A stretch of 11,603 nucleotides of DNA. It comes from Planctomycetota bacterium. Its GTDB lineage: Bacteria; Planctomycetota; Phycisphaerae; SM23-33. Below the pieces are notes generated by a model. It had not been told where the DNA came from and made no database searches. It saw only the letters and a list, made by a program, of their open reading frames with translations. Below are positions 147 to 11,503 of the stretch, piece after piece; position 1 is the first letter of the stretch, and every line of letters starts with the position of its first letter. Position numbers and translations under genes: made by a program. The stretch is taken from NCBI GenBank assembly GCA_029553505.1, contig JAKPKY010000249.1, positions 1-11,603 of the forward strand, written 5' to 3'.

Positions 147-920
147 TCACAGGCCGCTATCGAGCACCATGCCGAAGCGGCGCTCGCGCTGGCTGAAGGC
201 CCGGATGGCGTCCAGCAAGTGCTCCGCCGCAAAGTCGGGCCACAGCACATCCATGACGACAATCTCGGCGTAAGCGATCTGCCAGAGCAGGAAGTTGCTG
301 ACGCGCAGCTCGCCGGCGGTGCGGATGACCAGGTCGGGGTCGGGCACTCCGGCGGAGTCCAGATGCGTGGAGATGGCGGCTTCGTCGATCTTCGCGGGGT
401 CGAGCGTTCCGTCGCGGGCCTCGGCGGCGACGGCGCGGACGGCGTCGACGATCTCCGCGCGCGACCCGTAATTCAACGCCAGGCACAGGAACATCCCGGT
501 GTTGGACGACGAGACGCGGACGGTCTCGTCCAGCTCGCGCAGGACATTTTCGGGCAGTCCGTCGCGCCGCCCCAGGTGCCGCACGCGGATGTTGTGGTCC
601 ATCACCGTGGGGCGCTCGTGGATGAGGTAGTCGGCGTAGAGGTGCATCAGGGCGTTGACCTCTTCGCGCGGGCGGCGCCAGTTCTCGATGGAGAAGCTGT
701 AGAGCGTCAGGGCGTCCATCCCCAGCCTGGCCGCCTCGGTGACGATGCGGCGGACGACCTTGGCGCCTTCCTGGTGCCCCACCGGGCGCGGAAGCCCACG
801 GGCGCGGGCCCAGCGCCCGTTCCCGTCCATGATGATGGCCACCGAGCGCGGAATCCGCCCCTCGCCGACGCCCAGTTCGGCCCGCGCCTTCGCGACGGCT
901 TGCGGGGATATGTCCGCCAT
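147..920 (-). CDS. uppS: Undecaprenyl-diphosphate synthase (cis-isoprenyl transferase), 257 aa from MADISPQ (alternative upstream start at 953)
   Basis: Translation carries hallmark UppS motifs (IIMDGNGRWA, ALTLYSFSIENWRRP, NYGSR, RTAGELRVSNFLLWQIAYAEIVVMDVLWPDF, RERRFG); start ATG 920-918 overlaps the purA stop as TAATG. Confidence 0.93.
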   Translation of the reverse strand: MADISPQAVAKARAELGVGEGRIPRSVAIIMDGNGRWARARGLPRPVGHQEGAKVVRRIVTEAARLGMDALTLYSFSIENWRRPREEVNALMHLYADYLIHERPTVMDHNIRVRHLGRRDGLPENVLRELDETVRVSSSNTGMFLCLALNYGSRAEIVDAVRAVAAEARDGTLDPAKIDEAAISTHLDSAGVPDPDLVIRTAGELRVSNFLLWQIAYAEIVVMDVLWPDFAAEHLLDAIRAFSQRERRFGMVLDSGL

Positions 921-2224
921 TACCGAAGCTCCTCGACGCCCGTGCGACGCCAAATGAGCATCTCCCGCTCCGGGCCCACACCGATCGACCCGACCGGGCG
1001 GCCCAGGTACTGCTCAATCCGCTCCACGTACGCCTGTGCCGCGCGGGGCAGGTCGTCGAACCGCCGGCACGCGGAGATGTCTTCCTTCCAGCCGGGCAAC
1101 GTCTCGTAGACGCACTCGGCCTGCGCCATCTCGTTGGGATCGAACGCGTCGATCGCCTTGGAGCCCACGCGGTAGCCCGTGCAGATTTTCAACTCGTCCA
1201 GGCCGGTCAGCACGTCCAGCAGCCCCAGGGCGATCTCGTGGACGCCCGACAGGTCCGCGGTGTATTTGACGAGGAACAGGTCCAGCCAGCCGCAACGCCG
1301 GGGGCGGCCCGTCGTCGTGCCGTATTCGTGCCCGCGCTGGCGGATGTAGTTCCCGGTTTCGTTGTCCTGCTCGGCGGGGAACGGTCCGGCGCCGACGCGG
1401 GTGGTGTAGGCCTTGACCAGCCCGATGACGTGCCCGACGGACGACGGAGGCACGCCCGTCCCGCTCGGGACGCCGCACGCGCTGACCGACGAGCTGGTGA
1501 CGAACGGGTAGGTTCCGTGGTCGATGTCCAGCATGGTTCCCTGCCCGCCCTCGAAGAGGATCCTCTCGCCGGCGGCGGTGGCGCGGCGGAGGAGTTCGCC
1601 CGTGTTGTCGATCATGGGCGCCAGGACGCGGCCGTGCTCGACATACTCCTCGGCGATCTGCTTTCCGTCGAGCGGTTCGGCCCCGTACAGGGCGCCGAAG
1701 ACGCGGCTCTTGATGTCGGCGATCATGCGGACCTTGTCGCGCAGGCGGTCGGGGTCGCGCAGCTCCCCGACGCGGATGGCGGTGGAGCGGTTGGCCTTGT
1801 CGCTGTAGCAAGGCCCGATTCCGCGGGCGGTGGTCCCGATCTTCGCGCCGCCGAGGCTCTGCTCGCTGAGCTGGTCCTGGAGCTTGTGCCAGGGCATGAC
1901 CACCTGGGCGCAGGCGGAGATGCGAAGGTTCCGCTCGTCGGCCTCGACGCCGCGGGCCCGCAAGCCCTCGATTTCCTTCCGGGCCACCGGCGGGTCGAAC
2001 GCCACGCCGTTTCCGATGACGTTCACCACGTCCGGGCGGAAGATTCCGCAGGGAATCAGGTGGAGGGCGAATTTCTCGGTCCCGACGACCACGGTATGCC
2101 CGGCGTTGGCCCCGCCGCAATACCTGGCGACGTACCGCGAGACGCCCGCGACGGCGTCCACGATCTTGCCCTTGCCCTCGTCACCCCATTGAAGGCCCAC
2201 GACGCAGACGTTCTTGCATGCCAT
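920..2224 (-). CDS. purA: Adenylosuccinate synthetase, 434 aa
   Basis: N-terminal P-loop GLQWGDEGKGK, GHTV, TTARGIGPCY, and the GTTGRPRRCGWLD motif typical of PurA; stop TAA at 922-920 overlaps the uppS start by 1 nt, suggesting translational coupling. Confidence 0.95.
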   Translation of the reverse strand: MACKNVCVVGLQWGDEGKGKIVDAVAGVSRYVARYCGGANAGHTVVVGTEKFALHLIPCGIFRPDVVNVIGNGVAFDPPVARKEIEGLRARGVEADERNLRISACAQVVMPWHKLQDQLSEQSLGGAKIGTTARGIGPCYSDKANRSTAIRVGELRDPDRLRDKVRMIADIKSRVFGALYGAEPLDGKQIAEEYVEHGRVLAPMIDNTGELLRRATAAGERILFEGGQGTMLDIDHGTYPFVTSSSVSACGVPSGTGVPPSSVGHVIGLVKAYTTRVGAGPFPAEQDNETGNYIRQRGHEYGTTTGRPRRCGWLDLFLVKYTADLSGVHEIALGLLDVLTGLDELKICTGYRVGSKAIDAFDPNEMAQAECVYETLPGWKEDISACRRFDDLPRAAQAYVERIEQYLGRPVGSIGVGPEREMLIWRRTGVEELR

Positions 2225-4791: not shown

Positions 4792-4805
4792 GAAACCTGC
4801 TGCAT

Positions 4806-4878
4806 GGGGCTGTGGCGCAGTTGGGAGCGCGTCTGCATGGCATGCAGAAGGTCGAGGGTTCAAATCCCTCCAGCTCCA
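4806..4878 (+). tRNA. tRNA-Ala (anticodon GGC), 73 nt, CCA not encoded
   Basis: Cloverleaf folded by hand: acceptor GGGGCTG/CAGCTCC with the G3:U70 wobble pair that defines Ala identity; D-stem GCGC/GCGC; anticodon stem TCTGC/GCAGA with loop ATGGCAT (GGC at 34-36), identical in stem-loop architecture to E. coli tRNA-Ala(GGC); T-stem GAGGG/CCCTC with loop TTCAAAT; discriminator A. Confidence 0.92.
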
Positions 4879-4882
4879 TTGA

Positions 4883-4911
4883 GGCGGACCTTTTCGGGTT
4901 CGCCTTTTTTA
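4883..4911 (+). terminator. Rho-independent terminator for tRNA-Ala: GGCGGACC-ttttcg-GGTTCGCC then TTTTTTATTT
   Basis: 8-bp GC-rich stem (one G:T wobble) followed by a T-run; the T-run overlaps the TAA stop (4911-4909) of the convergent minus-strand gene. Confidence 0.7.
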
Positions 4912-6192
4912 TTTCCCCGCCTTGGTTTCCGGAGGGGCTTCGCTCGCAACCATTGATTCCCTAAGGCATTGGAACGCCTCGCTCATCCGGACGGCGTCCG
5001 GCTCGCCCGAAGCGTCGAAGACCATCGCCATGGGCGCGGCGTTGAGGCCGGGACGGACTTTCGCCCCCGCGACGACCAGCCAGCGGTGCCACTTGCCGGC
5101 CGAGGGCGTCAGCACGCTGAAAATTTCCGTCGCCGTCTCGCCCGCCTGCCAGGACTTGTGGACCAGGACGAGGTATCCCTTGTCGCGGAAGTGTTGCAGG
5201 TAGGTGTCCAGGACGGCCTGCGGCGTCTTGGCCGACCGCCCCGCCAGCGCGCGGGCGAACAGCAGCCCGCCCGGCGCGGGCGTGAGGTACAACTGGGCGT
5301 AGGGTTCGATCTCGGCAACATACTTTCGTTCGCCGCGTTCGAAGCGGACCCAGCCCGTCGGGGGCCTGACCTCGATTCGCAAAGGCCCGTCGCGTTTGGA
5401 GACGGCCTGTCCGGGCGCGGCGGCGGGCGTCTCGGCCAGCGCCTTGACCAGCGCTGCCGCGAAGGGCTCGTAGAGCTTCCGCTCTCCCTCGGCCTGGTGG
5501 TCGGGCCCGCGCGGCGGGGCCTTGCCTGCCGCGACGGCCTCCAGCCAGGCGTCCAGCGCGTCGTCGGGCTCGACAAACTCCAGGCCCTCGCCCAGGCGCG
5601 TGTCGAGGGTGAAATTCGCGTCAGCGCCGTCCGCCGTCTGTCGCCACATCGTCAGCGTGCCGGCCGCGTCTTGCGGGCGCGTGCCCACGCTCACCCAGAC
5701 GGGCACGGACGCGGGCGGCTTCCACAGGCCGATCGACTCGCCGGATTTTTCCACCGGCGTCACGGAGTTCAGCACGATCCCCGACAGGCGTTGCGGGTTC
5801 AGAGAGGCCAGCGCCAGCGCCGTCGGACCGTTGGCGGCGTCGGCGACGAGCAGGAACTTCCGCGCGTCGAGGGGCTTTCCCTCGGCTGCCCGGTCCACGG
5901 CCGCCAGCAACGCCCCGACGCGCGAGGCGTCGAGTTTTTCCCCGGCCGCCGGGCGAAACACGAAGAAGCCCTTGGCGAGCAGCCGCGGAGTGAAGTGCTC
6001 CGCCGCGCCGCGCGGCCCCTCGGCCGCCAGCAGCAGCGCGGCAGGACGCTTGCCTTCGGCCGCCTTGGGAGTCAGGACCGCCAGGTTGACGGGCTCCGCC
6101 GACTGCGACGCCGGCTGCGACGCCGCATCGGCCCCCATGGCGACGGCCACCAAACCCGCCCACGCCACTGCCGCAACGATGTGCCTGTTCAT
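4909..6192 (-). CDS. Secreted hypothetical protein, 427 aa (signal peptide MNRHIVAAVAWAGLVAVAMGADA); ORF is open upstream to a TTG at 6270 but that extension overlaps the MITE-like repeat
   Basis: Long ORF with non-artefactual composition (many K/E/F/W/Y); N-terminal hydrophobic signal sequence from ATG 6192; no motifs I can assign to a family. Confidence 0.55.
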   Translation of the reverse strand: MNRHIVAAVAWAGLVAVAMGADAASQPASQSAEPVNLAVLTPKAAEGKRPAALLLAAEGPRGAAEHFTPRLLAKGFFVFRPAAGEKLDASRVGALLAAVDRAAEGKPLDARKFLLVADAANGPTALALASLNPQRLSGIVLNSVTPVEKSGESIGLWKPPASVPVWVSVGTRPQDAAGTLTMWRQTADGADANFTLDTRLGEGLEFVEPDDALDAWLEAVAAGKAPPRGPDHQAEGERKLYEPFAAALVKALAETPAAAPGQAVSKRDGPLRIEVRPPTGWVRFERGERKYVAEIEPYAQLYLTPAPGGLLFARALAGRSAKTPQAVLDTYLQHFRDKGYLVLVHKSWQAGETATEIFSVLTPSAGKWHRWLVVAGAKVRPGLNAAPMAMVFDASGEPDAVRMSEAFQCLRESMVASEAPPETKAGK

Positions 6193-6245
6193 GCCGTCAC
6201 TGAATACCCCAAATCCGCCCCGACGGCAAGAAGCGAAAATAGTAG

Positions 6246-6385
6246 CCAGGCTCTGTCTGAAAACTCGCAATCCGGGGGTGCCACGGCTTGCTTGTCAAGC
6301 CGTGTCGCCGCAAGAACACTGCTTGCAAGCAAGCAGTGCCACCCTTGTGGATACATCTGGCGAGGAGTTTTCAGACAGAGCCTGG
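6246..6385. mobile_element. MITE-like element, 140 bp: perfect 21-bp terminal inverted repeats (CCAGGCTCTGTCTGAAAACTC 6246-6266 / GAGTTTTCAGACAGAGCCTGG 6365-6385) flanked by TAG on both sides (6243-6245, 6386-6388); carries two GC-rich palindromic hairpin modules
   Basis: Inverted repeat and flanking TAG direct repeat read directly from sequence; no ORF inside; sits in the divergent promoter region between the 4909..6192 gene and mutY. Confidence 0.4.
6274..6344. repeat. Two adjacent palindromic hairpin modules (R1 family) inside the MITE-like element: GGGGGTGCCAC-GGCTTG-cttgt-CAAGCC-GTG (6274-6304) and, in opposite orientation, CACTGCTTGC-aa-GCAAGCAGTGCCACCC (6317-6344)
   Basis: The reverse complement of the second module (GGGTGGCACtGCTTGCTTGCAAGCaGTGTTC) is near-identical to 10304-10336 (GGGTGGCACgGCTTGCTTGCAAGCcGTGTTC). 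Confidence 0.6.
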
Positions 6386-6417
6386 TAGCCTGTGCATCGG
6401 TCGGAGCGCACGAACCG

Positions 6418-6446
6418 CTTGGCCGGGCGGTCGGCGGACCGTACAA
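6418..6446 (+). promoter_or_regulatory. Candidate mutY promoter: TTGGCC (6418-6423) - 17 nt - TACAAT (6441-6446), followed by a GC palindrome CCCCGCGCGGGG in the leader
   Basis: Canonical spacing; 40 nt upstream of the mutY GTG. Confidence 0.4.
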
Positions 6447-6486
6447 TGCCCCGGCCGCCCCGCGCGGGGCCGGCGGAATCCGTATC

Positions 6487-7572
6487 GTGAAGCTCTCCCC
6501 AAAGATCGTCGAAGACGTCCGGAAACGCCTGCTGGACTGGTATCGCCGCCACTGCCGCGAGATGCCCTGGCGGCAAATCCGCGACCCCTACGCCATCTGG
6601 ATTTCCGAGATCATGCTCCAGCAGACGCGGGTGACGGCCGTCGTGCCCTACTTCCGCCGATTCCTGGAGCGATTCCCCGACGCAGCGTCGCTGGCCCGGG
6701 CCCGCCTCGACGACGTGCTCAAGGCATGGGAAGGCCTGGGCTACTACAGCCGCGCGCGGAACCTCCACGCGGCCGCCAAGCGCGTCGTGGCCGACTTCGG
6801 CGGGGCACTGCCCCGCAGCGTCGAGCAACTCCGCTCGCTGCCGGGCGTGGGGCAATACACGGCCGGGGCCATCGCGAGCATCGCGTTCGGCCTGGACGAA
6901 CCCGTGCTGGACGGAAACGTGACGCGCGTGCTGTGCCGCCTGCTGCGCGTGGAATCCGACCCGCGCAGCGGCGCGACGGTGCGCGGGCTGTGGGCGGCGG
7001 CGCGGCGGCTCGTGCCGCGCGGAAAGGCCGGCCTGTTCAACCAGGCGATGATGGACCTTGGCGCGACCGTCTGCACGCCGCGCAACCCCCGCTGCGGCGC
7101 CTGCCCGCTGGCGACGCCCTGCCGCGCCCGCGCAGCCGGCGTGCAGGAGCAACTGCCGCGCAAGGCCTCCCGCAAGCCCCTGCCGCACCACACCGTCGTC
7201 TGCGCGATCGTCCGCCGGCGCGGGCGCATCCTCCTGGGCCGCCGCCGGGAAGAGGGACTGCTGGGCGGCCTGTGGGAATTCCCCGGCGGGAAGGTCGAGC
7301 CCGGCGAGTCGCTGCCGCAGGCCCTCGCGCGGGAAGTGCGAGAGGAAGTCGGCCTGGACATCCGCGTGGGCGAGCGGCTGGCCGTCGTCGAGCACGCCTA
7401 CACGCACTTCCGGATCACGCTGCACGCCTTCGACTGCCGGGCGGACAACGGGCGGGCGCGGGCGCTCGGCTGCCAGCGCGTCCGATGGGTCCGCCCAAAC
7501 GAACTCGACCAGTACGCCTTCCCCCGCGCCAACCGCCGCATCCTCCAGGCCATCACGGAATTTTCGATTTGA
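6487..7572 (+). CDS. mutY: A/G-specific adenine DNA glycosylase MutY with C-terminal NUDIX/MutT-like domain, 361 aa
   Basis: LLDWYRRH..R.MPWR, EIMLQQTRV, helix-hairpin-helix LPGVGQYTAGAIASIAFG, catalytic D in VLDGNVTRV, 4Fe-4S Cys cluster CTPRNPRCGACPLATPC, C-terminal WEFPGGKVE NUDIX-like fold; GTG start at 6487 is the first in-frame start after the promoter; the long upstream extension of the ORF (from 4969) is antisense to the previous gene. Confidence 0.9.
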   Translation: MKLSPKIVEDVRKRLLDWYRRHCREMPWRQIRDPYAIWISEIMLQQTRVTAVVPYFRRFLERFPDAASLARARLDDVLKAWEGLGYYSRARNLHAAAKRVVADFGGALPRSVEQLRSLPGVGQYTAGAIASIAFGLDEPVLDGNVTRVLCRLLRVESDPRSGATVRGLWAAARRLVPRGKAGLFNQAMMDLGATVCTPRNPRCGACPLATPCRARAAGVQEQLPRKASRKPLPHHTVVCAIVRRRGRILLGRRREEGLLGGLWEFPGGKVEPGESLPQALAREVREEVGLDIRVGERLAVVEHAYTHFRITLHAFDCRADNGRARALGCQRVRWVRPNELDQYAFPRANRRILQAITEFSI

Positions 7573-7992: not shown

Positions 7993-8628
7993 ATGACGGA
8001 ATGGTGGACGCACCTGACGATGCTGAACCAGTCGTTTTACGTGGCGGCGGGGTTCTTCAGCATCATCTTCCTGTGGCAGTTCATCGGCGCGATGCTGGGC
8101 ATGGGCCACGGCGACGTGGACCTGCATCTGGACGCGGGCGCCGACGCCGCCGACGTCGGCGGCGACAGCCTGGAGGCGCACTCGGCGCACGAGGCAGCCG
8201 ACAGCGCCGCGGCCTTCAAGGTGCTCTCCCTCCGCGCGGTGCTGGCGTTCTGCACGATGTTCGCCTGGGCCGGGGCGCTGTACCTGAACCTCGGCACGCG
8301 CGTGGCGATCGCCCTGCTGTACGCCCTGGCGTGGGGCCTGGCGGGCTGGGCGCTGGTGGCGGTGCTGGTGAACTGGATGCGCCGCCTGTCCGAGAGCGGC
8401 ACGCCGCGCCTGAGCTCGTGCGTGGGCACGACGGGCACGGTGTACCTGCACATCCCGGCCGGCGGGTGCGGCGAGGCGCGCGTGATGGTCAGCGGGGTCA
8501 TCTCGACGGTCAAGGCCCGCGCCGCCGACGGCGGGCAGATGGTCGCGGGCACGCCCGTCCGCGTGACCGCCGTGCTGGATCACTCCACGATATCGGTCGC
8601 CCCTGTCACGGGGGAGAAAACTGCCTGA
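7993..8628 (+). CDS. nfeD: NfeD-like membrane protein (short NfeD/YuaF type): N-terminal TM helices plus C-terminal OB-fold beta-barrel, 211 aa
   Basis: AAGGAG SD 7 nt upstream of the ATG; two or three hydrophobic helices (FYVAAGFFSIIFLWQFIGAMLG, AVLAFCTMFAWAGALYL, IALLYALAWGLAGWALVAVLV) then GTVYLHIPAGGCGEARVMVSGVISTVKARAADGGQMVAGTPVRVTAVLDHSTISV typical of the NfeD C-terminal domain; sits immediately upstream of a flotillin gene, as in the B. subtilis yuaF-yuaG pair. Confidence 0.75.
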   Translation: MTEWWTHLTMLNQSFYVAAGFFSIIFLWQFIGAMLGMGHGDVDLHLDAGADAADVGGDSLEAHSAHEAADSAAAFKVLSLRAVLAFCTMFAWAGALYLNLGTRVAIALLYALAWGLAGWALVAVLVNWMRRLSESGTPRLSSCVGTTGTVYLHIPAGGCGEARVMVSGVISTVKARAADGGQMVAGTPVRVTAVLDHSTISVAPVTGEKTA

Positions 8629-8779
8629 CAAAACGAACCGCGGAGTTCGCAGTCCCGAAGGGATGCCTTCGGCAAGGACGCGGAGTCAGAGAAATGAATT
8701 AGAAGTCTTCTCAGCGACCTCTGTGCCCTCTGCGGTGGGGATTTTTGTTCTTGGACTTCAAGGGAAAGGAACAGGACCA

Positions 8780-10270
8780 ATGAACGCAATGACGGCAATG
8801 CCGGCCCTTCTGGCGGCGACGGGCGACGAGGGGGGATTCCCCACCGGGGTCGTGCTGACGCTGATGCTCCTGGTCATCGGGTTCGGCGTGCTGATGTTCT
8901 TCTTCAGCCGCATCCGCCGGTGCCCCTCCAACAAGGTGCTGGTCATCTACGGGAAAACGGGCAGCGGCGCCGCGCGGTGCGTGCACGGCGGAATGGCGTT
9001 CGTCTGGCCGCTGATCCAGGCGTACGACTACCTGGACCTCGAGCCGTTCGTCGTGCCGATCGACCTGACCAACGCGCTGTCGCAGGAGAACATCCGCGTG
9101 TCGGTTCCGACGACGGTGACGGCCGCCATCTCCAACCAGCCGGGCGTCATGGAAAACGCCGCCATCCGACTGCTGGGACTGACGCGCGGGCAGATTCAGG
9201 CGCAGGCGCAGGACATCATCCTCGGGCAGATGCGCGCGGTCATCGCCACGATGAAGATCGAGGACATCAACCGCGATCGCCAGGCGTTCATGAGCGCGGT
9301 GAACGAGGCCGTGACGTTCGAGTTGGAGAAGATCGGCCTGGGCGTCATCAACGTCAACATCCGCGACATCGAGGACGAGTCGGGATACATCAAGGCGCTG
9401 GGGCGCAAGGCGGCGGCCGAGGCCATCAACCAGGCCAACATCGACGTCGCCGAGCAGGAGAAGCGCGGGCAGACGGGCGTGGCCGAGCGCCAGCGCGACA
9501 CGCGCATCGCGGTGGCCAACGCCAACGCGCTGGCGGACATCGGCGAATCGCAGGCCAGCCGCGACCGGCGACAGAAAGTCGCCGGGCTCGAGGCGCAGGC
9601 GGTCGAGGCCGAAACCGACGCCGACGCCAAGAAGGCCTCCTACCGCGCCAACCAGCGCGTGGCCGAGGAGCAGGCGCGCAACCGGTCGGAATCGGCCGGC
9701 AAGGAGGCCGACGGCGCCATCCGCGTCGCGCAGGAAGTCGCCCAGAAAAAGGCCGAGGAAGCTCGCGCCCAGCGCGAGCAGGCGCGCCTGAACGCCGAGG
9801 TGGTCGTGCCCGCCAACGCCCAGCGGGAGAAGGTCATCATCGCCGCCGAGGCCGAGAAACAGCAGTCCATCCGGATCGCCGAAGGACAGGCCGCCGCCAC
9901 CCTCGCCAAGATGCAGGCCGAGGCCAAGGGCGTCCAGGCCATCCTCGACGGAAAGGCCGAGGGCTACCAGCGACTCGTCGAGGCGTGCAAGGCGGCCGAG
10001 CAGGTGGCCGCCCTGCTGCTCATCGAGAAGCTCGCGGACGTCGCGGCCGTCCAGGCCCAGGCGATCAAGGACCTGCCCATCGAGAAGGTCATCGTCTGGG
10101 ACGGCGGCGGCGACGGCGAGGGCGGGCTCAAGGGGCTGGGCGGACGGCTGCTCGGGGCCCTGCCGCCCATGCACGACCTGGCCAAGCAGGTCGGGCTGGA
10201 GCTGCCGGAGTTCCTCGGGCGCATCGCGGCGGAAGCCAACAAGACGCCAAAGCCCGCCAAGGACGCCTGA
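8780..10270 (+). CDS. floT: Flotillin-like SPFH/band-7 protein, 496 aa
   Basis: AAAGGAA SD 9 nt before ATG 8780; N-terminal membrane hairpin (GVVLTLMLLVIGFGVLMFFF) then SPFH domain (KVLVIYGKTGS..., IEDINRDRQAF, GYIKALGRKAAAE); long Ala/Glu/Gln-rich coiled-coil (EA-repeat) region; C-terminal KVIVWDGGGDGEGG. The in-frame extension back to 8663 has no SD and is judged artefactual. Confidence 0.88.
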   Translation: MNAMTAMPALLAATGDEGGFPTGVVLTLMLLVIGFGVLMFFFSRIRRCPSNKVLVIYGKTGSGAARCVHGGMAFVWPLIQAYDYLDLEPFVVPIDLTNALSQENIRVSVPTTVTAAISNQPGVMENAAIRLLGLTRGQIQAQAQDIILGQMRAVIATMKIEDINRDRQAFMSAVNEAVTFELEKIGLGVINVNIRDIEDESGYIKALGRKAAAEAINQANIDVAEQEKRGQTGVAERQRDTRIAVANANALADIGESQASRDRRQKVAGLEAQAVEAETDADAKKASYRANQRVAEEQARNRSESAGKEADGAIRVAQEVAQKKAEEARAQREQARLNAEVVVPANAQREKVIIAAEAEKQQSIRIAEGQAAATLAKMQAEAKGVQAILDGKAEGYQRLVEACKAAEQVAALLLIEKLADVAAVQAQAIKDLPIEKVIVWDGGGDGEGGLKGLGGRLLGALPPMHDLAKQVGLELPEFLGRIAAEANKTPKPAKDA

Positions 10271-10296
10271 CGCGGCGTGACGTTTCCCGCAAGCCG
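10271..10296 (+). repeat. 26-nt direct repeat CGCGGCGTGAcGTTTCCCGCAAGCCG immediately after the floT stop (copy 1; copy 2 at 10901-10926)
   Basis: 25/26 identity with 10901-10926; leader segment of the REP-like composite element. Confidence 0.7.
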
Positions 10297-10303
10297 CGGC
10301 GAC

Positions 10304-10338
10304 GGGTGGCACGGCTTGCTTGCAAGCCGTGTTCATAC
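10304..10338 (+). repeat. R1 palindromic module GGGTGGCAC-GGCTTG-cttg-CAAGCC-GTGTTCAT (9-bp stem hairpin)
   Basis: Near-identical to the reverse complement of 6312-6344 and related to 6274-6304. Confidence 0.65.
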
Positions 10339-10367: not shown

Positions 10368-10440
10368 GGGTGCCACGGCCAAGCGCTGTCTGCTTGGCCG
10401 TGCGGACACCCTCAAGCACACGACGCTTGAGGGTGGCACC
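10368..10440 (+). repeat. R2 element, 73 nt, predicted three-way junction: outer stem GGTGCCA/TGGCACC; hairpin 1 GGCCAAGC-gctgtct-GCTTGGCC; linker GTGCGGACA; hairpin 2 CCCTCAAGC-acacgac-GCTTGAGGG
   Basis: 70/73 identical to 10936-11008; lies in the 5' leader of the bPH gene. Confidence 0.7.
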
Positions 10441-10460
10441 TGCCCAAGACGGAGTGAACC

Positions 10461-10910
10461 ATGGAAATGACGATGGAGATTCAGCGCCGCAAGGTGGAGA
10501 GTTACCTGCTCTGGCAGGCGGCGCTGACGTTTCTGCTGATCGGGGTGTGCACGTGGGGCGTCGGCCTGGCCGTGGGGTTGTTGTACCTGCTGACGTTCGG
10601 CCCGTACGTCGCCCGCCGGCGGGCCGAGGCGCTGGAGTACCGCCTGGACGGAACGACCGTGCGGATCCGCGAGGGATTCCTCTTCATCAAGCACAAGAGC
10701 ATCCCGCTGGACCGCGTGACGGACATCGTGATGGACCAGGGCCCGCTGCTGCGGCACTACGGGCTGTGGACGCTGAAGCTCCAGACGGCCGGCGTCGGCC
10801 AGGGGCGTGCCGAGGGCGTACTGTACGGCCTGACGGAACCCGAGCGCATCCGCGAGATGCTGATCGCCGCCCGCGACCAGGCCGCCCGCCGCGGCGACTA
10901 CGCGGCGTGA
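10461..10910 (+). CDS. Bacterial PH-domain (bPH_2 / YdbS-like, DUF304-type) membrane protein, 149 aa
   Basis: GGAG 8 nt upstream of the ATG; two N-terminal TM helices (LLWQAALTFLLIGVCTWGVGLAVGLLYLLTF) followed by a ~90-aa domain with the characteristic IPLDRVTDI...QGPLLRHYGLWTLKLQTAG pattern of bPH_2 proteins. Confidence 0.75.
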   Translation: MEMTMEIQRRKVESYLLWQAALTFLLIGVCTWGVGLAVGLLYLLTFGPYVARRRAEALEYRLDGTTVRIREGFLFIKHKSIPLDRVTDIVMDQGPLLRHYGLWTLKLQTAGVGQGRAEGVLYGLTEPERIREMLIAARDQAARRGDYAA

Positions 10911-10926
10911 TGTTTCCCGCAAGCCG
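10901..10926 (+). repeat. 26-nt direct repeat CGCGGCGTGAtGTTTCCCGCAAGCCG (copy 2); its first 10 nt encode the last three codons and TGA stop of the bPH gene
   Basis: 25/26 identity with 10271-10296. Confidence 0.7.
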
Positions 10927-10935
10927 GGTCTATCT

Positions 10936-11008
10936 GGGTGCCACGGCCTGGCGCTGTCTGCTTGGCCGTGCGGACACCCTCAAGCACACGACGCTTGAGG
11001 GTGGCGCC
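10936..11008 (+). repeat. R2 element, copy 2 (GGGTGCCACGGCCtgGCGCTGTCTGCTTGGCCGTGCGGACACCCTCAAGCACACGACGCTTGAGGGTGGCgCC)
   Basis: 96% identical to 10368-10440; differences are AA->TG in the hairpin-1 5' arm (weakens pairing) and A->G in the outer stem (keeps G:U). Confidence 0.7.
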
Positions 11009-11026
11009 CAACAGTGGGCGTCGGGG

Positions 11027-11060
11027 AAAAAAAGAACGCCGCCTCTGTGAGGCGGCGTTC
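11027..11060 (-). terminator. Rho-independent terminator of the cold-shock gene: perfect 12-bp stem GAACGCCGCCTC / GAGGCGGCGTTC, 3-nt loop, followed on the minus strand by a T7 run
   Basis: Read directly; 25 nt downstream of the csp stop; also closes the convergent bPH transcript (no T-run in that direction). Confidence 0.8.
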
Positions 11061-11084
11061 CTGTGATTCATGCCGCGGGCGGGA

Positions 11085-11285
11085 TTAGCCCTTGCGGACG
11101 TTGACGGCCTTGGGGCCCTTCGGACCCTGCGTCAGGTCGAACGTCACGGTTTCGCCTTCGGCCAGCGACTTGAAGCCTTCGCCCTGGATGTCTCCGTGAT
11201 GGACGAACGCATCGGTGCCGTCATCGGCCGTAATGAATCCGAAACCCTTGGAATCGTTGAACCACTTCACCTTGCCGGTTGCCAT
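11085..11285 (-). CDS. cspA: Cold-shock protein, CspA family, 66 aa ([18 protein letters not shown]...)
   Basis: RNP-1 KGFGFI and RNP-2-like VFVHH motifs; AAGGAG SD 8 nt upstream of the second ATG (11285); the first ATG at 11291 is too close to the SD. Confidence 0.9.
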
Positions 11286-11291
11286 ACTCAT

Positions 11292-11503
11292 GGCTCCTTG
11301 TCATCAGGCACGTTTGTTCTCGAGCGTGTTCTCAAGCAACGAAACCGCAACGGTGAAGGGATTCACGGGGGCGGAAGACCTGAGTGTCAACTGTAGAAGA
11401 ATGCGAGTGCCGATCGTATTCGCCGGCGGCAAGCGAGGAACCTTTCCCCGCGGACCGTCAGCCATGTTGACTCAGGGTAGCGTTCCGCGCGGGGGAAGTC
11501 AAA
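11292..11503 (-). promoter_or_regulatory. Long (~200 nt) 5' untranslated leader of the csp gene, with a possible promoter TTGACT - 17 nt - TACCCT near 11470-11503 (minus strand)
   Basis: Csp genes typically carry long structured 5' UTRs; the hexamers are weak; the 67-aa ORF 11387..11590 here is judged spurious. Confidence 0.3.

Follow-up and report, generated by a model that had tools for sequence, protein, structure and literature searches.

The window analysed here, an 11,603-nt stretch of a Planctomycetota genome (class Phycisphaerae), contains many copies of a short palindromic module, and the question it raises is what kind of element this is and how its copies came to lie where they do. 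The initial annotation had placed a GGGTGSCAC-ended module in at least five places within 11.6 kb, in both orientations and in several combinations, and took it for a family of recombining palindromic units that may seed larger composite elements. The recurrence itself was readily reproduced. GGGTGSCAC occurs six times in the window, at 6276 on the plus strand, at 6336 on the minus strand, and at 10304, 10368, 10431 and 10936 on the plus strand, against a chance mean of 0.33, and none of 200 dinucleotide shuffles of the window reached six. Strictly defined units, in which such a head is joined to a hairpin, numbered five, versus 0.02 expected from Markov-1 simulations. The window has a GC content of 67.8% and carries the following genes.

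147-953, minus strand: uppS (Pfam and ORF analysis)
920-2224, minus strand: purA (Pfam and ORF analysis)
listed between purA and tRNA-Ala: two hypothetical genes (Pfam and ORF analysis)
4805-4879: tRNA-Ala
4909-6192, minus strand: secreted hypothetical gene (ORF analysis)
6487-7572, plus strand: mutY (Pfam and ORF analysis)
7993-8628, plus strand: NfeD-like gene (Pfam and ORF analysis)
8663-10270, plus strand: flotillin/Band 7 gene (Pfam and ORF analysis)
10461-10910, plus strand: bPH_2 gene, hereafter bPH (Pfam and ORF analysis)
11085-11291, minus strand: cspA (Pfam and ORF analysis)

The layout of the units is regular. Six unpaired bases, GGGTG[G/C], form a tag, and immediately 3' of it stands a hairpin of 9-13 bp with CAC at its opening and GTG at its close. 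Seven such head-plus-hairpin units, which we regard as candidate REP units, were recognised in the 11.6 kb. Two of them form a doublet (6276-6344), one stands alone (10304-10331) and four make up two further doublets, the two copies of an element termed R2.

6276-6304, plus strand: REP unit u1, tag GGGTGC, hairpin CACGGCTTG-CTTGT-CAAGCCGTG; 29 nt, C-type head, 5-nt loop
6305-6316: 12-nt spacer TCGCCGCAAGAA separating u1 and u2
6317-6344, minus strand: REP unit u2, GGGTGGCACTGCTTGCTTGCAAGCAGTG; 28 nt, G-type head
10304-10331, plus strand: singleton REP unit u3, the 28-mer GGGTGGCACGGCTTGCTTGCAAGCCGTG, 34 nt past the flotillin stop codon
10368-10441, both strands: R2 copy a, heads-outward doublet of 74 nt
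10368-10402, plus strand: first unit of R2 copy a, GGGTGCCAC, hairpin GGCCAAGC...GCTTGGCC
10403-10406: spacer of R2 copy a, CGGA, 4 nt
10407-10441, minus strand: second unit of R2 copy a, head AGGTGCCAC, hairpin CACCCTCAAGC...GCTTGAGGGTG
10936-11009: R2 copy b, heads-outward doublet, 96% identical to copy a
10936-10970, plus strand: first unit of R2 copy b
10971-10974: spacer of R2 copy b
10975-11009, minus strand: second unit of R2 copy b, head GGGCGCCAC

Together, u1 and u2 form a heads-outward, REPIN-like doublet (6276-6344), placed between the divergent secreted hypothetical gene and mutY. The hairpin at 10304-10336 had been described as near-identical to the reverse complement of 6312-6344, and indeed 6314-6344 and 10304-10334 are 94% complementary over 31 nt; the sole difference between u2 and u3 is a compensatory G:C to T:A stem change at two positions. 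The similarity claimed for 6274-6304 also holds, u1 being another copy of the module, with a loop of 5 nt. The hairpin core said to be shared by the family was found in part: GCTTGCAAGC is present only at 6321-6330 and 10318-10327, and u1 carries GCTTGTCAAGC instead. The ends of R2 had been misread. The element does not end in GTGGCACCC; its 3' ends are GTGGCACCT (10433-10441) and GTGGCGCCC (11001-11009), which on the minus strand are the slightly degenerate heads AGGTGCCAC and GGGCGCCAC of a second, inverted unit. R2 is therefore a heads-outward doublet, and the window total is seven units rather than five. Its 4-nt spacer compares with one of 12 nt in the doublet at 6276-6344, which is otherwise built likewise. 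As single strands, all these elements fold far more stably than shuffled controls, with -24.4 kcal/mol (z = -6.2) for the doublet at 6276-6344, -10.2 kcal/mol (z = -3.7) for u3 and -30.8 kcal/mol (z = -6.2) for R2 copy a. Between the flotillin gene and bPH, u3 and R2 copy a fill a gap of 190 nt, and R2 copy b lies between the convergent bPH and cspA genes.

The module is not confined to this window. We scanned one genome per species with the 19-mer GGGTGSCACNGCTTGCTTG and worked with stretches of 8 kb (hereafter loci, numbered with L). The matches listed included at least 104 stretches from approximately 30 metagenome-assembled genomes (MAGs), nearly all of them Planctomycetota and labelled Phycisphaerales/Phycisphaeraceae, Planctomycetia, Pirellulales, Thermoguttaceae or Planctomycetaceae, together with a few chance matches. 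The closest relative among the matches listed was UBA12270 (Phycisphaerales). In this genome, the u1 29-mer is found identical in L073 and L019, R2-related hairpins are present in L107 and L092, and the spacer between u1 and u2 is kept as TTGCCGCAAGAA and TAGCCGCAAGAA in the doublet copies of L073 and L095, indicating that the doublet was copied whole. One stretch, L026, comes from a 318-kb contig in a MAG with the label Armatimonadota and bears a genuine heads-outward doublet (2560-2640); either the MAG is mis-binned or mis-labelled, or the family extends beyond Planctomycetota.

Over the 768 kb of loci, GGGTGSCAC heads numbered 189, versus about 22 expected. Since 122 units had been selected by the scan itself, they were excluded from the unbiased counts, and the unbiased evidence lies in the remaining heads, of which there were 67 (again versus about 22 expected). 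Among these 67, 54 are directly followed by a CAC...GTG hairpin, compared with 0.9 expected from Markov-1 simulations; when all units are counted, 158 were found where 0.9 were expected. The proposal of a high-copy, dispersed family of small palindromes thus held up, as did the prediction that the 9-mer would exceed the frequency set by base composition, with and without the scan-selected copies. Of the 108 canonical units in the loci, 59 were the u3 28-mer, more than any other unit, in a scan whose pattern favoured it.

Across the loci, the tag and the CAC/GTG base of the stem are constant and the stems are diverse, with types including GGCTTGC, TGCTTGC, TGGTTGC, GCTTTGC, GGGTTGC, AGGTTGC, TGACAA..., GGCCAAGC... 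and GGCTGC..., so that the modular nature of the family was confirmed. The loop is CTTG or CTCG and is closed by a G-C pair. For 27 distinct 28-nt units, 99.6% of stem cells were paired, a percentage biased by the unit definition, which demanded at least 6 stem pairs. The stems covary: 30 cells were changed on both sides, a level that 0 of 500 shuffles reached, and five pair types were seen at pair 10-25 and three at pair 12-23. Doublets are equally regular in their geometry. We counted 32 heads-outward and 0 heads-inward doublets, with spacers of 10-32 nt, and in the sampled set the two stems of a doublet always differ from each other. Whole doublets, spacer included, recur within a genome, as in the eight UBA12270 copies with a TTCnGGGCGAATTCnnCAA-like spacer. 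Two further arrangements were seen. L064 (3035-3232) has 3.5 tandem copies of a 56-nt unit with one REP each (95% matches), which is a rare arrangement, and a REP unit in L055 (4288-4375) contains a loop insertion of approximately 33 nt (GGGTGCCACGGCTTGCTTG-CCGGTGAGGCGGGGATCTTGCCCGCCAACGAG-CAAGCCGTG).

A candidate partner gene was found in the same loci. Searching their six-frame translation by phmmer with E. coli RayT (NC_000913.3) as the query returned three ORFs of the REP-associated Y1 HUH tyrosine transposase (RAYT) kind.

L017, 6033-6605: RAYT ORF, phmmer E = 1e-8
L021, 517-1122: RAYT ORF, phmmer E = 2e-7
L105, 4908-5459: RAYT ORF, phmmer E = 5e-7

Each of them exceeds the Pfam Y1_Tnp cut-off and has the motifs PEH[VA]H (the HUH motif), FWQ and YIH[AH]NP (the Y motif YIHxNP). 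For a profile made from the three ORFs, the closest solved structure was 4ER8, E. coli TnpA-REP (E = 3e-9), compared with E = 0.007 for the IS200-type 2FYX. At E <= 1e-10, about 8,000 homologues match the profile, and several of them are named transposase (Phycisphaerae, Planctomycetes, Gemmataceae) or 'REP-associated tyrosine transposase'. More specifically, the RAYT gene of L021 is flanked by the exact u3 28-mer of the window, at 482-509 on the plus strand and 1048-1075 on the minus strand, heads outward, and those of L105 and L017 are flanked by units of the TGACAA and GGGCAA hairpin types. Six more homologues with their flanks (L109/L110, L111, L112, L114, L115 and L116) have the same arrangement. 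Hence, hairpins tagged with GGGTGSCA[C/T] flank the RAYT gene in all nine loci examined, usually on the plus strand upstream and on the minus strand downstream. Many homologues of the clade sit on contigs of approximately 1 kb, as would be expected if RAYT genes are bracketed by repeats that break assemblies. No Y1_Tnp/RAYT gene lies within the window, and phmmer with E. coli RayT gave no match in 25 UBA12270 loci; a RAYT encoded elsewhere in the window's own genome presumably acts on the window copies.

The fixed tag, the covarying stems, the heads-outward doublets copied whole and the flanking RAYT genes all point to a REP/REPIN-RAYT system. Systems of this kind, in which REP, BIME or REPIN elements are associated with a RAYT (TnpA-REP), reportedly exist in E. 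coli and Pseudomonas (Nunvar 2010; Bertels & Rainey 2011; Ton-Hoang 2012; Quentin et al. 2018, PMC6006769); their units are imperfect palindromes of 20-40 nt, and a genome that carries them typically has one copy of the RAYT. The module is very probably a REP unit, alone or in REPIN/BIME-like doublets, one of the REP/REPIN set that goes with a RAYT clade of Planctomycetota. If it works like E. coli REP/RayT and IS200/IS605, the unit would fold whenever the DNA is single-stranded, and RAYT would recognise the hairpin together with its 5' tag, the presumed substrate being single-stranded GGGTGG-CACGGCTTGCTTGCAAGCCGTG. The enzyme may then cut and rejoin the strand, a cleavage chemistry again borrowed from those systems, and doublets could thereby be copied to new intergenic sites, with the repeat family coevolving with its transposase. 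Effects on the host would be secondary, for example putative stabilisation of the flotillin and bPH mRNAs at their 3' ends or perturbation of the divergent region 6193-6486. The idea that units recombine to seed composite elements found no support, the regular anatomy and the RAYT flanks leading instead to REP/REPIN-RAYT. The kind of system is known, and the family is an ordinary member of it rather than a set of newly arising recombining modules.

Genomic placement bears on the question of whether the units might be conserved for another reason. For these statistics, genes were called with our own codon-usage caller, which reproduces the Pfam-supported genes in the window, where it was checked. 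Units no more than 150 nt apart were merged, giving 117 sites.

Inside a gene: 2 of 117 sites
Between tandem genes: 49 of 117 sites
Between convergent genes: 32 of 117 sites
Between divergent genes: 19 of 117 sites
At a locus edge: 15 of 117 sites

Thus 100 of the classifiable sites are intergenic and 2 genic (approximately 98% intergenic), although genes cover 79% of the DNA. The intergenic regions of the loci comprise 372 tandem, 95 convergent and 93 divergent ones. Convergent regions therefore hold 32% of sites and make up 17% of intergenic regions, and divergent regions hold 19% of sites, with the window's own doublet among them. The family is extragenic and moderately enriched at 3'-3' junctions, with no avoidance of promoter-side regions.

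Given this distribution, the units could be thought of primarily as RNA elements, that is, terminators, stabilisers of mRNA 3' ends or a small structured RNA, conserved for that function. Besides the convergent excess, such a reading could draw on the covarying stem, on a loop of the stable G(CUUG)C / G(CUCG)C type, on the closeness of units in tandem regions to the upstream stop codon (median 61 nt, versus 123 nt to the next start) and on the window itself, in which u3 and both R2 copies come after stop codons. Nevertheless, the unit is asymmetric, its tag always being 5' on its own strand, and yet singletons in tandem regions showed no orientation bias (18 along transcription, 15 against). 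The sites between divergent genes also speak against it. Furthermore, no T-run follows the units on their 3' side and a terminator scan of the window called none at them, whereas cspA has a canonical intrinsic terminator at 11032-11062 (a 14-bp GC-rich hairpin with an A-run on the plus strand, i.e., a T-run on the minus strand), so the window's genome uses ordinary terminators. At E <= 1, Rfam gave no match at the units except a weak, chance-level Clostridiales-1 overlap (23 bits versus a gathering score of 48, E = 0.18). The conserved tag, finally, is explained by the association with RAYT. We consider it very improbable that the units are RNA elements in origin; an RNA role may be compatible with them as a secondary effect. 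Nor are they a cis element of a particular gene. The genes flanking units are unrelated to one another, and all-vs-all ORF clustering gave no recurrent neighbour family except the RAYT pair and syntenic housekeeping genes, by which a gene-specific element is ruled out. A CRISPR array was rejected as well: the units are dispersed and in both orientations, L024 and L051 have no arrays, and the 'spacers' of L064 are identical.

Another reading is suggested by the surroundings of the doublet at 6276-6344, which is enclosed by a pair of terminal inverted repeats (TIRs; CCAGGCTCTGTCTGAAAACTC) that define a 140-nt shell, W (6246-6385).

6246-6266, plus strand: left TIR of the W shell, 21 nt, 100% complementary to 6365-6385
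6365-6385, minus strand: right TIR of the W shell, 21 nt, perfect partner of the left TIR

W as a whole has a folding energy of -52.3 kcal/mol (z = -10.2 versus shuffled controls), and the promoter-like site of mutY (6419-6447) lies outside it. The observation that the module recurs in both orientations and in different combinations was correct, the combinations being singleton, inverted doublet and TIR-bounded element. The module could be carried along as no more than cargo in classical MITEs moved through their TIRs by a DDE transposase, or be left over from the parent insertion sequence. Consistent with this, W shells are also present in UBA12270 (L018 3653-3923, and L073 427-562, the latter 96% identical), and an unrelated shell, type A, of approximately 130 nt (TIR TAGAGCAACTGGCGTCA, with TA on either end), is present in at least 36 copies (L006-L106), each with a single REP unit, in the MAGs Dive96_bin3.198 and OFTM12 (e.g., L036 minus strand, approximately 2180-2310, and L014 6835-6965). 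However, most units and doublets in the loci have no surrounding TIR, and none encloses u3 or either R2 copy in the window; the same unit is found within two TIR families that are unrelated to each other; a consistent target-site duplication was not found at W (TAG stands on either side of it in the window, and L018 has none); and no DDE transposase with ends matching the shells was seen in the loci examined. A DDE-type MITE reading explains at most the outer shells and not the module family, for which we regard it as very improbable. The 21-bp TIR shell around 6276-6344 carries the REPIN as a layer of its own, specific to the lineage. As for similarity by chance or composition, or an assembly artefact, short GC-rich palindromes are common at the window's 68% GC and several contigs break at the elements. 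Yet no shuffle reached the observed head count, the units are about 60-fold above expectation in the loci, and the repeats were assembled independently in four samples and, among the matches listed, in approximately 30 MAGs. Chance is refuted, and we give this whole reading next to no weight.

The REP/REPIN-RAYT assignment agrees with published and comparative evidence. Table S1 of Quentin et al. 2018 (PMC6006769) places GGTGCCACTGCTGGCTTGTCCAGCAGTG and GTGCCACTGGCTCCGCCAGTG, as REPs, beside the subclass 2.2 TnpA-REP genes ADY58460.1 and ADY58178.1 of 'PbraA01', and the paper also notes GTGG-enriched REPs for marginal subclass 2.2 RAYTs and a 'CnGA' foot for class 3 TnpA-Y1 of Planctomycetes. 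The present units resemble the PbraA01 REPs of that table in the head (G)GTGCCAC, the stem opening CACTG and closing CAGTG and the loops CTTGT / CTTGC, and GTGCCACTGGCTCCGCCAGTG equals a unit of L005 except for the first tag bases. From the ADY accession numbers, we take 'PbraA01' to be Planctomyces/Rubinisphaera brasiliensis. The table deals with the flanks of individual RAYT genes in one genome, and the available part of the source describes neither a tag common to the phylum nor a doublet rule nor MITE-like carriers. Class 3 TnpA-Y1 of Planctomycetes was dropped as the partner because the flanking genes have the class 2 YIHxNP motif and match 4ER8. A literature search of incomplete coverage (the 9-mers, and Planctomycetes REP/MITE) returned no dedicated description of the family, members of which are recorded in the table above.

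The units share with REP/REPIN elements a palindrome of 28-35 nt with a conserved unpaired 5' tag at the hairpin foot, dispersed extragenic copies on a scale of hundreds, and inverted pairing across a short spacer, with the doublet copied whole. A doublet can bring together two unit subtypes, as with the Y and Z REPs of BIMEs, and a Y1 HUH transposase gene flanked by units recalls a REPtron. Known REP tags are GTAG or CGTC (Di Nocera et al. 2013, PMC3733652), whereas the tag here is GGGTG[G/C], giving nine conserved nucleotides with the stem base CAC; G-type heads carry GTGG, which fits GT[AG]G, and C-type heads carry GTGC, which does not. Classical REPs are species- or genus-specific, but here the tag and a near-identical hairpin are common to several orders of the phylum, no doublet of the sampled set has two identical stems and some copies lie in TIR-bounded shells. 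Unlike E. coli REPs, the units do not avoid sites between divergent genes, 19% being higher than classically reported. With IS200/IS605 (IS608, ISDra2), the family would share a Y1 HUH transposase that reads a DNA hairpin and an adjacent short guide on one strand; in contrast to those elements, the hairpins are dispersed without a transposase gene between them, there is no tnpB, and the flanked gene is a far closer match to RayT than to an IS200-type transposase. The shells W and type A, for their part, are small TIR-bounded intergenic repeats like Correia / NEMIS and TA-flanked MITEs, with which they have no sequence similarity, and conservation here lies in the internal REP unit rather than in the TIR.

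The family is mildly unusual in its 9-nt tag, its breadth across the phylum and the occurrence of REPs inside TIR-bounded shells. The 9-nt tag and an almost invariant 28-nt unit were found in Phycisphaerales, Pirellulales, Planctomycetales and Gemmatales. It is conceivable, though we put it forward tentatively and think it somewhat doubtful, that GGGTGS palindromes constitute a third REP super-family beside GTAG and CGTC, specific to a Planctomycetota RAYT clade, with the tag and the 28-nt unit static across orders and with REPs carried in shells. If so, either the recognition between RAYT and REP has been in exceptional stasis or there has been repeated transfer within the phylum, and REPs inside TIR-bounded MITE-like shells would couple two transposition systems. 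For REPIN specialists, the long tag, the phylum-wide near-identical unit and the nested REPs would offer a deep-branching test case of RAYT-REP coevolution. The current view of how REP/REPIN elements work is unchanged by these findings, by which a conspicuous repeat of uncultured Phycisphaerales genomes is explained as an ordinary REP/REPIN-RAYT system.

The repeats also matter for short-read assembly. Contigs L001 and L003 start at window position 6294, in the loop of the u1 hairpin, the 3' ends of L118 and L119, which come from other samples, coincide with that of R2 copy b (window approximately 11005-11009), and several scaffold gaps (N runs) of UBA12270 begin inside units, so the repeats fragment such assemblies. 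Other contigs of the window's population are 100% identical to it, and the same sequences were assembled independently in four samples. No presence/absence polymorphism of the units, of the sort that would show mobility, was found: mutY and bPH protein look-ups yielded short contigs alone, all of them 100% identical, and those for the exact flotillin and cspA proteins returned nothing.

Two features near the units are of a different nature. The Rfam cspA thermoregulator (RF01766) matches 11029-11370 on the minus strand with 55.5 bits, below the gathering score of 78, covering the cspA coding sequence and its 5' leader. A 27-nt direct repeat, D19 (ACGCGGCGTGAYGTTTCCCGCAAGCCG), which is not a REP unit, lies at 10270-10296 and 10900-10926 with 96% identity between the copies. 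Together with R2, it forms a composite of approximately 110 nt that follows both the flotillin and the bPH genes, the first copy being interrupted by u3 plus 36 nt; D19 was not found beside the R2-like elements of UBA12270. Its first copy starts at the flotillin stop codon, and its second is the source of the last three codons and the stop of bPH. Repeats can thus overlap gene ends, and here it is the neighbouring D19, not the REP, that provides the bPH stop.
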